Positions 3,461 through 45,988 of a DNA stretch of 64,000 nucleotides are shown piece by piece. The stretch covers positions 37,696,001 to 37,760,000 of the forward strand of contig OX597831.1 in the NCBI GenBank assembly GCA_951406725.2, read 5' to 3'. A program made the translations under genes and the position numbers. The notes beneath the pieces were generated by a model. That model worked only from the letters and a program-made list of their open reading frames with translations. It was not told the origin of the DNA and searched no databases. Position 1 is the first letter of the stretch. Each line of letters begins with the position of its first letter. The stretch is from Octopus vulgaris (lineage: Eukaryota).

Positions 3461-5458
3461 AACGGAACATCCTACATTTAAAAATGATCCACAATTCCCA
3501 GTCTATAATCTGAATTCCTCTTTGCATTTCGAATGGCTGATGTTGTCATTAACAGATATCCAAACATCTGATGTCTGGTTAAAGAATTGAATGTTGTTAA
3601 AATAGAAATACATATGAACTCCCGTTTAAAGACAATTCGAAGGTCCTCATTTATAATGCGAAATCTGTTTTAATTTTCTCGCGTAATTGCGTTTAAATCC
3701 TAGTCTATAATTTGTTCTGTGAAAAGATATAAAGATGGTTAATAGTTAACAGGAGAAACGTAGTCAACATCTCAACTCCATTTTCAATCTAACTTCTGTT
3801 AGGTATCACTGTATTGTAAATTAAAATTTTGAGGTAGAATTATCGTCTAATTATTAAAAATTGAACCTTGTTAGAACTAATTCGAAGAATATCTTTGTCA
3901 ACATATCGGCCAGATTCTCAATGATCAGCCAAGGTAAAAGTCTACAAGAATAGGAAATATAGCCTATAATAGACCAATAACTATAGTACTTTTCTGTGCC
4001 ATAGAAGGAATGCAGCGAGCATTAGAGCCTCGGGAAAAAACGGCTCGCCTTTTCTCCTTTCATGAGTCGATAAAATAGAACAAAATTCTAATACTTATGT
4101 TCTGCAGACAAAGAGCGTGACTTTCCAGTTGGTGCGGGCTAATGTTACCTTCAATCTCTTTCTATACCGAGACAAAGTAACAACTTCGCCTCAGATTTGG
4201 TGATGCAGATATACACGTCAATAAATGCGCGCCTAATTCCTAGCTTCACGTACTTAAATTTTTAATCTTCTCTGAGATTTCAATACTTATATAATGGTAT
4301 GGCTTTGTGGTTAAGGAATCCGCCTTGTGCCCACGTGATTTCAAGTTTAATCTCACTTCATAGAAACTTGGTCATCTTCTTTATCCTCTTCTTTTGGGTC
4401 ATCTTCTTTAGACCCCGGCCGTCCACTGACTTGCGAGTGAATTTGGCAAAGGAAAATGTGCTGAAGCTCATAGCGTGTAAGAACATTAGAATTAGCGTCT
4501 TCTTCAAACTTCAATAGAATAATTCAAAACATATTCTAACACTGAATATTTCAGAAAAACAAAGCAGACCGGGGTTACCAGCTAAGGATCGGATACAATT
4601 ATCTCTGAATAATATGAACATTTGGACTCTTTCAATTGGCTCGACAAGCGTGTTATGTAATTTAACGCTTCTATTTAATCAACAGAGGGTGTTAACCACA
4701 TACAAACGCGCGCGCACACTCACGCTCACAGATACACGCACACATATACATATATACACACATATATGCATACAAACATACATAGACAGCTGCCAACTGA
4801 TGAAGGGTCATTCTTTATGGTTGTTACTTGTCCTGTTTTCCTATTTGTTTCTCTCGTTGTTTGCATATTGAACTCATTTGTTTTCGTATTTCATGTTGTT
4901 TACTGTTGGTGATGTCCTGTACCCATATATGCATATGTATATATATATATATATATATATGCATGCGTGTGTGTGTGTGTATGTATGCATGTGTATGTAT
5001 GTATCTATATATCTATCTATCTATCTATGTGTGTGTGTGGGTACTCAACTTCCATATAAATCCTAGTATAATAGATACAGCTTTCGCTTGAATTTTAGCA
5101 ATGCCGATAACGATTGACCCAAATAACGTATGAGTTCCTTTATCTCTAAATCTTAATCTTTGCCATATTTTGAAGCTAATTTGCAATGTCTATTTCCAAC
5201 GTTTATGCAACAATACCTCCCATAAATCACGCTTTATATCAGAAGTAATAGGTTAGCGATTATCGAAATAAAACATTTCCCGCAATATCGTTGGTAACAT
5301 CAATCAAATATTCTTTGAATAAGTCTGGAAAATGGAAGAGCAGAAGTATAATCAACAAGTTGACCGGTCATCAAAATGATTCACTATGGTCCGCATAAAG
5401 CAAAGAAACGCGTCGCTGCTTAATAACAGTGAAATGATTGCGTAATATACAACCAAAC

Positions 5459-5640: not shown

Positions 5641-5810
5641 GGTGCAGGCGTGGTTATATGGTAAGAAGCTCTGCTTCCCAACCACGTAGCTCCGGGTTCA
5701 GTCCTACTGCGTAGTACATTGGGCAAGTGTCTTCTACTATAGTTTCAGGCGGACCAAAGCCTCGTCAGTGGATTTGGTAGACGGAAACAGAAAAGAAGCC
5801 CGTAGTTTAT

Positions 5811-18964: not shown

Positions 18965-19133
18965 ATATGTATGTAATACAATTTGCTGAACCTTCAGATT
19001 TTAATATGCCAGACCACTGGTTTTAAATTGATGTTAATCAAATTAATATCCAATTTTCACCCTCATTTTAAATTTATATTTATACATATATATGTATTTA
19101 TATTTATATTTATATATGTATATATACATATGC

Positions 19134-19187
<54 letters not shown>

Positions 19188-19513
19188 GATACATTATATA
19201 TATATGTATATACATGTATGAATATATATTTATATAATCAGTACAACTATCTGAAAGTATATCTTGACTTACCGTTCGTTATATATAAAGTACGAATGTT
19301 TTAAACATATCTGCTATATCATTTATAGCGGTACAATTTTATAATATGTATGTAATACAATTTGCTGAACCTTCAGATTTTAATATGCCAGACCACTGGT
19401 TTTAAATTGATGTTAATCAAATTAATATCCAATTTTTCACCCTCATTTTAAATTTATATTTATACATATATATGTATTTATATTTATATTTATATATGTA
19501 TATATACATATGC

Positions 19514-19569
<56 letters not shown>

Positions 19570-19731
19570 GATACATTATATATATATGTATATACATGTA
19601 TGAATATATATTTATATAATCAGTACAACTATCTGAAAGTATATCTTGACTTACCGTTCGTTATATATAAAGTACGAATGTTTTAAACATATCTGCTATA
19701 TCATTTATAGCGGTACAATTTTATAATATGT
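18965..19731. repeat. Tandem duplication, ~380-bp unit x2
   Basis: 18965-19343 and 19344-~19724 nearly identical, including the microsatellites. Confidence 0.92.
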
Positions 19732-20638
19732 AAATAGAAATGTGTTTGCCAACGAAATAATTGGAAAGAGGTTGATTATATACCTTCTGTATATCTTCAA
19801 TCTGACTGTATTTCGCTTGTAAATGCAAATATTTACTAAAGATATGTGAAGATCCTTCTCTCATTAGCAGTTTACAAAATTTCTCTTTACATTTATAACA
19901 CCATTTGTTTGCATTGCAAAACTGACGCTTTGCTATTGGGTGTCATTGGCGTTTCCTTAATTTCCAAATAAATTGCTGATGCTGTACTTTGATGAAGGCA
20001 ATGCTTTACGGCTAACAAAGTGCGACGTAACATGAGTAAATTACCTTCCGTTTGTCTATTATATGTCTACAGTCTCTTCTCACGAATTTCAAAATCAATA
20101 GATTAGCTCTAACAATAGAGATGTCTCTTTTATGTTTACTCAGTGAATAACTGTGGAATCAATACTTGTGAGGAAATCGACGCCAAAATGGCAACACAAT
20201 CAGTATAAATGCGAAATATTTGAAAGACATCATTTAGTATCATTGTTATAAAAGATTTCTACAGAAGCATAAACAGAGGGGAAAGAAAGGTATTTCCAGA
20301 AGCAAAAATCAAAATAAACGTTTACACTTGATTAATTACGTTCCTACTCAACAGCACATTTTCACCGGAAGTCGTTACGAACAAAGTTTTTCAAGATTTA
20401 GTTGACTTCTGATGAAAAGTTAAACGTGGCAAAGGAGAGATTAAAAGTGCTAAAGGTTGACCCATGGATCTTTAGTTCAATTCCTGCAGGCGGTCGAGAA
20501 TTCTCATCTACCATGTCTTTTCCATCTTCTAACACGAAAATAGCATGTATATTATATTTGCAGATATCTACGTTCAAATCACCAATTCTTTCTCCTAATA
20601 CATCTATGATAATAATAGTAATAATATTTATTATTATT

Positions 20639-21628: not shown

Positions 21629-24334
21629 AGTAGTTTTATTTTTATTTTTATAGCGTGCTTTCACTTCACTACCGAGCGCAGCTCTGTGTGCCTTGGGTAT
21701 GTGCTGTGATTTGTTGTGATGCTCTGATGGTTATTGTATGGAAAGTGTTCTGCGTAGGATGTGGGCAGTGCCTAGTAGTGCAATTTTCTGTATGTTATAT
21801 GTGTTTGTAAGTCCTGGTGTTTTTGTTATGTATTTGTCTGAATATTTTTTTATCATGCCTAATGCACCTACTATGATAGGAATTGTTTCTGTTTTCAGAT
21901 TCCACATTCTAGTTACCTCTATTTCCAGGTCTTTGTATTTTGAGAGTTTCTTCATTTCTTTTAGAGACACGTTGTCATCTGCCGGTATTGATACATCAAT
22001 TAAAAAGCATTTTTTTCTTCATGATCTCTGACAACTATATCTGGTCTGTTGGCCTTAATTTCTCTATCTGTGTGTATCGGCATATCCCAGAGTATGGTTG
22101 CTTTCTCGTTTTCTGTGACCTTTTCTGGTGTGTGCCTATACCATCTTTTTTCTGTTGTTAATCCATAATGTTGGCATAGCTTCCAATGTATGTAGGTTCC
22201 AACTCTTGTCATGTCTGTGAATATATACCTTCTTAGCCAGGACTGGGCAGCTAGAGATAATATGATTTATTGTTTCTTGTCCATCTCCACATATTCTGCA
22301 GTTACTTGTAATATTTCTTTTCATTACATGTTTTTGGTAATTTCTGGTGGGGAGGCTTTGGTCTTGTGCTGCAATTAAAAATCCCTCTGTTTCTGCTTTG
22401 AGTCCTGAGCTTCTCAACCATTGCTGGGATTTTTCTTTGTCTATTTCTTTTGCGTTTAGTTTAGTGCAGTATTTACCATGAAGAGGCTTTTCTTTCCATC
22501 GTTTTATCATGGTTCGTTGCTGTTCTGTTTTTAGTTTGGATTTCATTTGTTTTATAGCTTTTGTTGTTTCTTCATCTTCTTCTTCTTCTTCTTCTTCTTC
22601 ATGTTTATTAGGTGGTATGATTTCTTGTTTGTATTTGTCAGCTTCCTTAAATACTGAGAACAGTTTTTTGTTTTGCTCGTGTTTTGCCGCTATCTGGATC
22701 AGTTTTCCTTCCTTCTGAAGTAGATATTTTTGCAGTCCTATGGTGGTTATTTTATAGTAGTTTTCCAGCTGTATAAGGCCTCTACCACCTTCCATACGTT
22801 GTATATATAGTATTTCTATGTCAGATTTTGGGTGATGCATCCTAGATCCTGTCATTATTTTTCTTGTTTTCCTATCTATTTTGGTCAGTTCATTTCGTGT
22901 CCAGTTAAGGATATTGTAGCTGTAACTTATAACTGGGACAGCTAAAGTGTTGATACCTATTATCTTGTTTTTAGCATTGAGCTCTGTGTTTAGTATTGAT
23001 CTAACTCGTCTATAATATTCTTTTTTTATTTTCTCTTTCATTTGTGTGTGTTGTGTCTTATCTAGTTCATGGATTCCTAAGTATTTGTAAGTTTGGCTTT
23101 GGTCTAATTCTTTTATTTCATTGGTTTTATCTAGTGTGATGTTGTTACTCTTAACTAGTTTTCCTCTTTTCATGGTTACTTTGGCGCATTTTTCTAATCC
23201 AAATTTCATATCTATTTCTTTGGTAAATCCATGAACTGTCTTTAATAGTGTTTCCAGCTGTTTGTCATTTGCAGCGTATAGTTTTAGGTCATCCATATAT
23301 AAAAGGTGGCTGATCGTTTTGCCGTAACATTTATATCCGCATCCAGTTCTATTTAGCATATCAGATAGAGGTGACAGTGCTAAGCAGAAAAGGAGTGGAG
23401 AGAGCGTGTCTCCCTGGAATATTCCTCTTCTAATGGGGATGTCTTTGGTTTTCATGAGTCCCTCTTTTGTTTGGAGGTGTAGGACTGTTTGCCATTTATT
23501 CATAGAGTGCTCTATGAATTTTATGATTGTTGGTGCTACTTTGTTAATGGCTAGTGTTTCGAGGATCCATGTGTGGGGGATGCTATCAAACGCCTTTTTG
23601 TAGTCAATCCAGGCCATACTGAGGCCTTTCTTCTTTCTGTGGCTGTCTTCAGTTATGGCTTTATTAATCATTAGTTGATCTTTACAGCCATATGAGCCTT
23701 TGCGGCATCCTTTCTGCTCTTCTGGGAACAGTTTGTTTTCGTCCAGTTGCTTGTTCAGCCTTTGTGATATCACTGCAGTAAATGCCTTGAACATAGTAGG
23801 GAGGCAGGTTATTGGTCTGTAGTTTTCTGGTTTTTCTGTTTCATTTGATTTGGGAATTAAGATGGTTTTCCCCTTCGTGAGCCATTCAGGCATTGTCTCT
23901 GGCTCTGCTAGTACGTTGTTAAAGTTTTCAGCCAACTGTTTGTGCATTCCTGTTAGATATTTCAACCAGAAGTTGGGGATCTTGTCATGCCCAGGTGCCT
24001 TCCAGTTGCTTAGTCTTTGCAGTGCCTGGGTGACCTCTTCAGTTGTTATGGGGGTCCAAAGTTGTTCAGATGCCGACTTTGTAATTTTGATACTCCTTTT
24101 TTTTGGTGGTTCGTTCGCCGACCATATCTCTCTCCAGAATTCTTCCAATTCTTCTGCCGTTGGTGCTGCAGTGACTTCTATTTTATTTTTGCCCAGTTCT
24201 TGGTAGAACTTTTTGGGGTTGGAGCTGAACTTTTTGTTTTCTTCAAAGAAGCGTTGGCGTTTCTTGTACCGGCGGATCCTTTGTGCTTTGGCAAGGATAT
24301 CTTGCTTCAGCTTTTCTTTTATTTCAGGCAAATC
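21629..24334 (-). mobile_element. R4/Dong-like non-LTR retrotransposon (RT + restriction-like endonuclease), 5'-truncated
   Basis: ORF 22136-24331: KAPGHD, YRPITCL, IDYKKAFDSIPH, GIFQGDTLSPLLF, YMDD, CRICGDGQETINHIISSC, RHD; continues via frameshifts in 22000-22212 (ILWDMPIHTD..ANRPDIVV) and 21731-21970 (KYKDL..IIVGALG..GTAHILRR); (TAA)n at both ends. Confidence 0.93.
21731..24331 (-). pseudogene. RT-RLE polyprotein, 5'-truncated with two frameshifts (~22210, ~22010)
   Basis: Three overlapping or adjacent ORFs jointly encode RT, CCHC finger and PD-(D/E)xK nuclease. Confidence 0.88.
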
Positions 24335-34851: not shown

Positions 34852-35670
34852 CGGGAAGGTTTGCGAAAATAAACAAAAGACGAAGGCAGGTTTACGAAAA
34901 TAAACAAGAGACGAAGGCAGGTGGAGTACAAACAAGAGACGAAGGCAGGGGAGAGGAGGGGGAGAGGAGGAAGGGGAGGGGAGAGGGATATTAGGAGGGG
35001 AGAGGGAGGGAGATGAGGAGAAGGGGAAGAGAAGAGGAGTGAGGGAGCAGAGAGAAAAAGAGAGGGGGAAGAGGGAAGAAGAAAGAACAAGAGGGAAGAA
35101 GGGAAGAGGAGGGAAAGAAAGTAGGGGTGAAAAGATGAAGGACTGAAGAGAAGTAGGAGTCAGGGTGAGGTTAGATGAAAAAAAAGGGGGGTAGGGGGGT
35201 AGATGAAAAGGGGGAGAGTTGAGACCAAATGGCGTAAAAGAGCGAAGAGAGAAGATTAATCCCTGTTCACGGCGCAAACGGGAATCCGGATGGCCTCTGT
35301 GCAAGGACAATCCGAACACAGACAGGTGTTCCAAGGAGTTACCGGTGGAGCGGAATTGGCATGAGACCGGTTTGTCATTGGCCAGGCGGAGATCCCGGAG
35401 GTGTTCCGTGAACCGGTCAGCCAAGCGGCGTCCCGTTTGTCTGATGTACAGGGAATGGCAGAGAGAGCAGGAGATGCAATAGATGATATTGCTGGAGGTG
35501 CAGGTGAAGGAGTCGATGATGCGATAGGGTCGATGATGGGTGCCAGTGAGGAGGGTGGTGTTGGAGAGGTAAGGGCAAGTGCGGCAACGTTGGCGGAAGC
35601 AGGGGAACGAGCCATGTTTGGAGGTAGGGTCAGGGAAGAAGCTGTGGACCAAGAGGTCTCGTAGGTTTAT
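34849..35670 (-). mobile_element. Penelope-like element 3' part: GIY-YIG endonuclease + 3' terminus
   Basis: ORF 34774-35652: CFRQRCRTC, FTCTSSNIIYCISCSLCHSLYIRQTGRRLADRFTEHLRD, PVS, RLRREQ.LIF.L...P.GLN; ends at (TA)n; 5' end cut at a SINE. Confidence 0.88.

Positions 35671-45159: not shown

Positions 45160-45162
<3 letters not shown>
44890..45162 (+). mobile_element. LINE (RTE-BovB-like) extreme 3' end with C2H2-like finger
   Basis: CRVCHKVYKSNRSLERHFKIH plus a degenerate second CxxC, ending directly in (TA)n; no TGEKP linker. Confidence 0.5.
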
Positions 45163-45204
<42 letters not shown>

Positions 45205-45210
45205 TGTATG

Positions 45211-45272
<62 letters not shown>

Positions 45273-45277
<5 letters not shown>

Positions 45278-45843
45278 TTAACAATTAAGGATAACTTCTT
45301 AATTAGGAATCTTAACAAGAAATTATCAGGTAGATAGCGTGAAAAACCTCATAAGAGAAAAATTTCGAAAATATTTTTTTCTTATTGAACATATTAATTT
45401 ATATTATATAGAGGGCACTATTACACATAAATGCCTCACGCTAAGATTCTTGTTAAGATTCCTTATTAAGAAGTTATCCTTAATTGTTAAATTTATTCCG
45501 AAAAAAACTTTTCCTACCCGAAATGCAGTTGGAAGAAGCCCGCCATTTACCGGATATATGATTTGTAAACTTCTACATGTGCTTCGTTAGAAAGAGCAGT
45601 TGGCTGTTCGACTTCGACGGTACTGGTCGTTTATTTGATATGTTCGGAATCAGTCTTACTGATGAGCATGGACGCAATTTCTACTGCGGTGAGTGCGAAA
45701 TCACAGGTGATATAAGACTAAATTCATTTTTAAATGTCTTGCTTTGAAAAACTGTATTGGGTATGATTAGTAAAATTTTTTTTGGGTGGAAATGACTTAT
45801 GTCCCTCTTAGCGTGAGGCATTTATGTGTAATAGTGCCCTCTA
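45273..45843 (+). mobile_element. Non-coding PLE-like foldback element with two interleaved inverted repeats and a hammerhead ribozyme
   Basis: A 45273-45321 / A' 45446-45495; B 45409-45446 / B' 45806-45843; long (TA)n on both sides. Confidence 0.75.
45652..45719 (+). ncRNA. Type-I hammerhead ribozyme, canonical core
   Basis: AGTCTTA CTGATGA GCA..CGCA..TGCG..TGC GAA ATCAC AG GTGAT A TAAGACT: 7-bp stem I, all core nucleotides present, predicted cleavage after AUA (45712). Confidence 0.85.
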
Positions 45844-45844
45844 G

Positions 45845-45988
<144 letters not shown>

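Follow-up and report, generated by a model that had tools for sequence, protein, structure and literature searches.

Non-LTR retrozymes of animals, as described in PMC7229834 and 10.64898/2026.07.22.740005, are non-coding units of less than 50% GC that each carry one type I hammerhead ribozyme, occur as anything from monomers to long tandems, have a self-paired circular fold and co-exist with Penelope-like elements (PLEs); the octopus family described here is alike in these respects. A PLE origin of animal retrozymes has already been proposed (Li, Clavereau and Pollet 2026, 10.64898/2026.07.22.740005). The hallmarks of PLEs are described as a bias toward (TA)n, partial tandems and 5'-truncated copies in inverted orientation, and with the endonuclease-bearing (EN+) PLEs (Neptune/Nematis, Hydra and Naiad; Craig et al. 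2021, PMC8557442) the octopus family shares the partial tandems, the (TA)n insertion bias, a hammerhead in the repeat and, at the 5' end, a copy that is inverted and 5'-truncated. The minimal hammerheads of PLEs (Cervera and de la Pena 2014, PMC4209133) resemble the ribozyme studied here in their type I topology, canonical core and self-complementary helix III region, and are described as having 7-8 bp in helix II, 4-5 bp in helix I and virtually no helix III. We analysed 64,000 nucleotides of Octopus vulgaris DNA (the window; GCA_951406725.2, OX597831.1, positions 37,696,001 to 37,760,000), and we think it probable (about 0.78) that a hammerhead motif within it is the conserved type I ribozyme of a non-coding, 479-bp animal non-LTR retrozyme that relies on the reverse transcriptase of a PLE, supplied in trans, for its copying into (TA)n.

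The motif occupies 45652..45719 of the forward strand. Its core, CUGAUGA (45659-45665), connects a 7-bp helix I (AGUCUUA at 45652-45658 with UAAGACU at 45713-45719) to a 4-bp helix II (GCAU at 45666-45669 with GUGC at 45693-45696, the fourth pair being U-G), which is followed by GAA (45697-45699) and then by helix III (45700..45711), in which AUCA (45700-45703) pairs with UGAU (45708-45711) beneath a CAGG tetraloop. Cleavage is predicted directly 3' of A17 (45712), that is, between 45712 and 45713 in the triplet AUA. The motif thus joins a CUGANGA core, GAAA and UH at a junction of three helices, of which helix I is the open one. As claimed in the preliminary description, which was made from the letters of the window, the hammerhead is intact in that the stems, core, GAA and AUA can all be read in the sequence. 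The three pairs given there for stem II (GCA/UGC) stand, and the actual helix II adds the fourth, U-G pair; the stem III given as AUCAC/GUGAU with a 2-nt loop is better read as 4 bp with the CAGG tetraloop, and a 2-nt closure of helix III is sterically unlikely.

Loop 2 (45670..45692) opens with G and closes with UGA, as in the RNnA type, and has a hairpin inserted into it (CGCA at 45673-45676 with UGCG at 45685-45688). Helix I has a distal extension (GAA at 45647-45649 with UUC at 45723-45725, spanning 45647..45725 in all) that is set off by an internal loop, and this internal loop is likely the loop-1 partner of loop 2. (Note that for a U to stand first on the 3' side of the internal loop, the seventh pair of helix I has to open.) There is precedent for an interrupted loop 2 from the (-) hammerhead of CChMVd, in which an internal loop, GU:CGCACA, takes the place of loop 2 (Dufour et al. 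2009, PMC2632901); that ribozyme is from a viroid and has an apical loop 1, whereas loop 1 of the octopus ribozyme would be the internal loop of helix I.

When both strands of the window were searched with a descriptor requiring three helices and the core, this motif was the single match, and the same full descriptor found nothing in 40 dinucleotide shuffles. The folding energy of the motif is ordinary (z -0.83), and no Rfam family reached its gathering score on it. Among 19 weak Rfam matches the sole ribozyme was RAGATH-1-hammerhead (18.2 bits, E 3); the others are microsatellite noise. Another repeat, on the reverse strand at 5712-5768, has a CUGACGA core and GAAA followed by the palindromic ACUAUAGU; it looks like a minimal hammerhead and fails the full hammerhead descriptor.

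Conservation of the helices was assessed in genomic copies, as the preliminary description had proposed, and stems I and II do covary. In a set of 49 distinct close copies, paired cells amount to 98.4%, against just 25-52% in slid controls, and two-sided changes occur at four pairs, three of them in stem I. The covariation score was matched by none of 500 shuffles, a control that is inflated by the kinship of the sequences. In these copies the distal extension of helix I is 97.3% paired with no two-sided change, and the arms of helix III are near-invariant, again with no two-sided change. Across subfamilies, the core is present upstream of 188 of 210 helix III matches. In a wider set of 155 copies (from which 33 units of a 31-mer locus were dropped, in which two near-duplicate loci were kept, and in which helix III was fixed by the search pattern), helix I retains at least 5 bp in 149 and helix II at least three of its 4 bp in 152. 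Swaps between A-U and G-C are found in this set at I.1, I.2, I.3, I.4, II.2 and II.4, with I.1 being A-U in 80 copies and G-C in 73, and II.2 being C-G in 84 and U-A in 69. Helices I and II are supported by covariation. Loop 2 varies from 3 to 25 nt, and begins with a purine and ends with A, which is the RNnA motif described by Dufour et al. 2009 (PMC2632901), in 146 of the 155; in a sister subfamily it is a plain GUAA, and the window's loop 2 is GUAA-like with the hairpin inserted. Moreover, a long-range helix encloses the ribozyme domain on the forward strand (45524..45756; UGCAGUU at 45524-45530 with AACUGUA at 45750-45756), and shows a compensatory G-C/A-U change between subfamilies (G-C in 29, A-U in 17 and mismatched in 15 of 64 scored). 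On this comparative evidence we regard the motif as confirmed as such: it appears to be a real type I hammerhead under structural selection, for which self-cleavage is predicted.

The U4C core variant is found in 33 of the 155 copies. This change is reported to reduce hammerhead activity in vitro (PMC3088659), yet one subfamily in which it is nearly fixed (CCGAUGA; L023, L024, L033 and other loci) has been amplified.

In the window the motif sits in a 576-bp insert flanked by two (TA)n microsatellites, which form the target flanks on the left (45160..45274) and on the right (45848..45978). The insert has two arms. The main arm (45447..45847, forward strand) covers positions 17-415 of the 479-bp unit, is 5'-truncated, and runs at its 3' end into (TA)n at a fixed end point. 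The second arm (45272..45446, reverse strand) covers unit positions 374-545, is inverted head-to-head relative to the main arm, is likewise 5'-truncated, and runs into (TA)n at another fixed end point. Where the arms overlap they differ at 1 of 45 and 1 of 50 bases. The second arm is without a ribozyme, and no second ribozyme in cis was found at the window locus. Because the copy has one ribozyme and a main arm shorter than one unit, it cannot release a monomer; it is an ordinary truncated insertion and a dead end, able in principle to cleave its own transcript a single time.

The unit was defined, by comparison with first 30 and later 66 loci, as a circularly permuted sequence of 479 bp. Monomers across subfamilies are 479-497 bp long, with 29-33% GC and a longest stop-free frame of 55-81 amino acids, and scans of 106 loci for a partner ORF found none. 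Like the animal retrozymes, the unit is thus non-coding, has less than 50% GC and contains a type I hammerhead. In the genome searched (2.8 Gb, 227 contigs) an exact 22-mer had 59 matches, and a relaxed helix III pattern had 2,445, compared with 54 for a control, indicating some 2,400 relatives; the unit was matched at 65-93% by 39 of 40 further sampled loci (all located in the first 70 Mb of C1, with the sister type excluded). The sister subfamily alone has 484 exact matches and a unit 76% identical to that of the window, and forms numerous dimers to tetramers and one 31-mer; subfamily units in general are only 66-77% identical to one another. Tandems with a ribozyme in each unit therefore occur in the family, and the window subfamily has a dimer at L011, while a single ribozyme is present in the window copy. 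In 83 of 97 segments from 65 loci the 3' end falls at unit positions 410-419, 425-429 or 65-69. These three fixed end points are TA-rich and run into (TA)n, and the 5' ends vary. All 16 inverted ribozyme pairs have a head-to-head arrangement. When folded as circles, units of two subfamilies are more stable than their shuffles (z -5.1 and -7.3) and that of a third folds like its shuffles (z -0.7).

The partial tandems, inverted 5'-truncated arms and (TA)n ends bear out the link to Penelope-type mobility drawn in the preliminary description, and the combination of partial tandem, inverted 5'-truncated copy and microsatellite target is that of PLE insertions. Unlike an autonomous EN+ PLE (PMC8557442), however, the octopus unit has no ORF and no reverse transcriptase (RT) or GIY-YIG endonuclease domain, and no DNA similarity was found between it and one intact PLE of 784 amino acids that adjoins one copy. 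Judged by its sequence, the family belongs with the animal non-LTR retrozymes on the testable features, and this kind of element is already known. Its unit of 480-497 bp lies above the 150-450 bp given in PMC7229834 and within the 51-972 bp given in 10.64898/2026.07.22.740005. It differs from the retrozymes as described in those two sources in its strict (TA)n targeting, fixed ends and head-to-head arms, and in its 4-bp helix III and the loop 2 hairpin of some subfamilies. Our search of the literature on octopus or cephalopod retrozymes or PLE hammerheads returned only Craig et al. 2021, and the supplements of PMC8557442, PMC7229834 and 10.64898/2026.07.22.740005 may list the family.

We envisage that loci with two or more ribozymes would be transcribed, that the multimeric transcripts would cleave themselves after AUA to give monomers, and that the monomers would be ligated into circles. 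The endonuclease of a PLE would then nick (TA)n, and the RNA could be primed from both DNA ends at fixed TA-rich sites, two or three in number, which would yield head-to-head arms, and tandems would result where copying went through more than one round. On this scheme the copy in the window would be a truncated product of that process. A candidate helper is the 784-amino-acid PLE, which has an intact RT and GIY-YIG domain and a CX4CxxC linker and ends in (TA)n. It is abundant (more than 30 full frames among the 150 matches listed), and by the description in PMC8557442 it is of the Neptune/Nematis type. The protein of an anole PLE is described as cutting both strands of AT-rich DNA and as initiating internally on its own RNA, at a site non-homologous to the target, and the hammerhead of that element as dispensable for insertion in vitro (PMC11167929). 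At L169 (G000:C9:10669500-10679400) there is a young, intact, 4.43-kb tandem PLE with a 446-amino-acid upstream frame and the 784-amino-acid RT-EN frame; its (TA)n end is preceded by what, by eye, is a minimal hammerhead whose core is a U3-A8-like variant.

Three readings compete with that of a retrozyme copied in trans. That the motif is a chance match or a decayed, functionless relic would agree with its ordinary folding energy and with its failure to reach any Rfam gathering score, but is contradicted by the 0 of 40 shuffles and by the extensive covariation, and we find it hardly credible. Another reading is that the unit is the orphaned pseudo-LTR (pLTR) of an autonomous PLE and that its copies are 5'-truncated PLE insertions. 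The insertion anatomy is identical to that of PLE insertions as described in PMC8557442, Xenopus retrozymes are reported to be homologous to pLTRs (10.64898/2026.07.22.740005), and at L147 the 3' UTR of a PLE is joined straight to the unit. However, a junction of this type was seen once among 40 scored candidates, comparison of 130 family loci with two PLE references revealed no other same-orientation passage from PLE into unit, a partner ORF is absent from the 106 loci scanned, and what lies upstream of a unit is the unit itself, up to 31 times; we therefore judge this reading improbable. (Note that the junction at L147, positions 4100-4643, is a one-off in which the retrozyme copy lies directly behind the PLE 3' UTR, and that at L052, positions 4865-4883, a retrozyme copy meets a truncated PLE head-to-head across 17 nt of TA; template switching and nested insertion are alternative accounts of these junctions.)

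Slightly less improbable, though still unlikely in our view, is that no circle exists, and that copies arise from uncut linear transcripts, read through or internally promoted, of loci of 1.2-1.5 units, with arrays formed by unequal crossover. Consistent with this, the window subfamily has no 2-unit segment and its 5' ends gather at unit positions 284-353 (24 of 93), as a transcription start might cause them to do; moreover, unprocessed RNA is reported to be the main substrate of the anole PLE (PMC11167929). Linear transcripts leave unexplained, however, why the ribozyme has been retained through compensatory change across subfamilies that are 66-77% identical, and why dispersed arrays of 2-4 units consist of identical units with standard (TA)n ends.

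A further matter is whether the ribozyme acts as a monomer or as a dimer. The preliminary description had likened the motif to the minimal PLE hammerheads and expected dimeric cleavage. That likeness does not extend to the helices: helix I has 6-7 bp, helix II has 4 bp and a loop 2 of the RNnA type, and helix III is a real helix of 4 bp with a tetraloop; the window motif is also without the extra nucleotide between A9 and 10.1 (PMC4209133). Nor is a near-palindromic stem III a special sign of dimers, because any hairpin stem is near-palindromic. As a hairpin, helix III of the window motif has little stability (+0.4 kcal/mol, compared with -11.2 for the duplex), and by this model it might pair as an intermolecular duplex. 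ViennaRNA favours a fold in which the core is paired (-19.6 versus -15.6 kcal/mol), tertiary contacts lying outside the model, and gives helix III a pairing probability of at most 0.10 in every context tried.

We consider it fairly probable that the window ribozyme works as a monomer, possibly faster as a dimer. An obligate dimer, active solely through an intermolecular helix III, which would leave lone copies like that of the window silent, is less likely, and we regard it as a serious but weaker contender. In its favour, hairpins of four loop variants come to +0.4 to +0.8 kcal/mol against -10.1 to -15.8 for the duplexes, one subfamily has a perfect 12-nt palindrome at helix III, the helix III arms are almost unchanged and lack any two-sided change, and animal type I hammerheads are described as known to act as dimers (PMC4209133). 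Helix III here exceeds, however, the 1-2 bp that are said to force dimers (PMC4209133), and monomers of coral and mussel retrozymes cleave at about 0.8 and about 0.1 per min, respectively, invertebrate retrozyme monomers with a shorter helix III being among those described as cleaving (PMC7229834). Furthermore, two ribozymes in direct tandem occur at only 1 of 53 loci of the window subfamily. Cleavage as a monomer is thus the likelier of the two. Counting against the prediction of self-cleavage itself, only 1 of 9 predicted retrozyme dimers of Xenopus is reported to have cleaved in vitro (10.64898/2026.07.22.740005).

The subfamilies differ sharply in array length. Direct ribozyme tandems were found at 1 of 53 window-subfamily loci and at 17 of 33 sister loci (p 4e-8; the sister list covers C1-C2, with the 31-mer counted once), and every segment of the window subfamily is shorter than two units. 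Divided by loop type, direct tandems number 0 of 22 for AG, 1 of 11 for AT, 1 of 6 for G, 4 of 10 for T and 0 of 1 for A (first 70 Mb of C1, two atypical matches omitted). The 31-unit array of the sister subfamily (G000:C1:64639809-64654973; L110 and L111) has diverged internally by 0.28%, includes an inverted arm and terminates 3' in (TA)n in the standard way. Divergence within arrays does not exceed 0.83% in 12 of 15, compared with 4.0% between arrays (77 of 86 units kept), and three arrays are internally 3.4-6.7% divergent; in the window subfamily it is 1.4% within loci versus 5.2% between them. At 9 of 17 multi-unit loci there are variants private to all of the units, including those in inverted arms, 'private' being defined relative to about 23 sampled loci. 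Such near-identity within insertions fits a single template that was copied repeatedly, with both ends of a cut (TA)n serving as primers; local duplication, or copying of a multimeric source locus, can also give identity within arrays.

The 5' ends of the window subfamily are unevenly placed. Within the 70 nt past the cut site (unit positions 284-353, a bin picked after the data were seen) fall 24 of 93, or 1.65 versus 0.36 per 100 nt. Only 3 of 93 lie within 10 nt of the cut site (p 0.02), and the idea that 5' ends lie exactly at the cut site was rejected, the larger pile-up being 40-60 nt downstream. In the sister subfamily, whose loci were partly picked as multimers, no excess was found (7 of 49, p 0.46). 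The pile-up coincides with the 3' foot of the conserved long-range helix, and a structural stall or a promoter therefore accounts for it as well as cleavage does. A rather doubtful scheme would have the design of the ribozyme set the number of rounds that a PLE RT makes on an RNA circle: subfamilies with a helix III tetraloop, such as the window's, would cut as monomers, so that copying stops just before the cut site and yields fewer than two units, and the subfamily with a 3-nt loop would require a dimer, so that the circle stays closed and arrays of up to 31 units result. Age, a structural stall or a promoter, rather than cleavage, are rival explanations of the subfamily contrast and the 5' ends. 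If the scheme were true, array length in the genome would report on hammerhead cleavage in vivo as a control of retrozyme arrays. The family, with its clear Penelope-type footprint, bears on the enzyme that copies animal retrozymes and on the role of their ribozymes in vivo, and its remodelled ribozymes and contrasting array lengths provide ready-made constructs for comparing monomer with dimer cleavage and for studying rolling-circle copying.

Other features of the window were noted. The reverse strand carries a decayed fragment of a GIY-YIG endonuclease from another Penelope-like family (35362-35664; 27% identical to P0001, E 6e-10) and a stop-free frame of 732 amino acids (22136-24334) that by eye resembles a non-LTR retrotransposon reverse transcriptase, the family of which also interrupts a retrozyme copy at L040. 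Finally, a 382-bp tandem pair, 99% identical, lies at 18965-19732.
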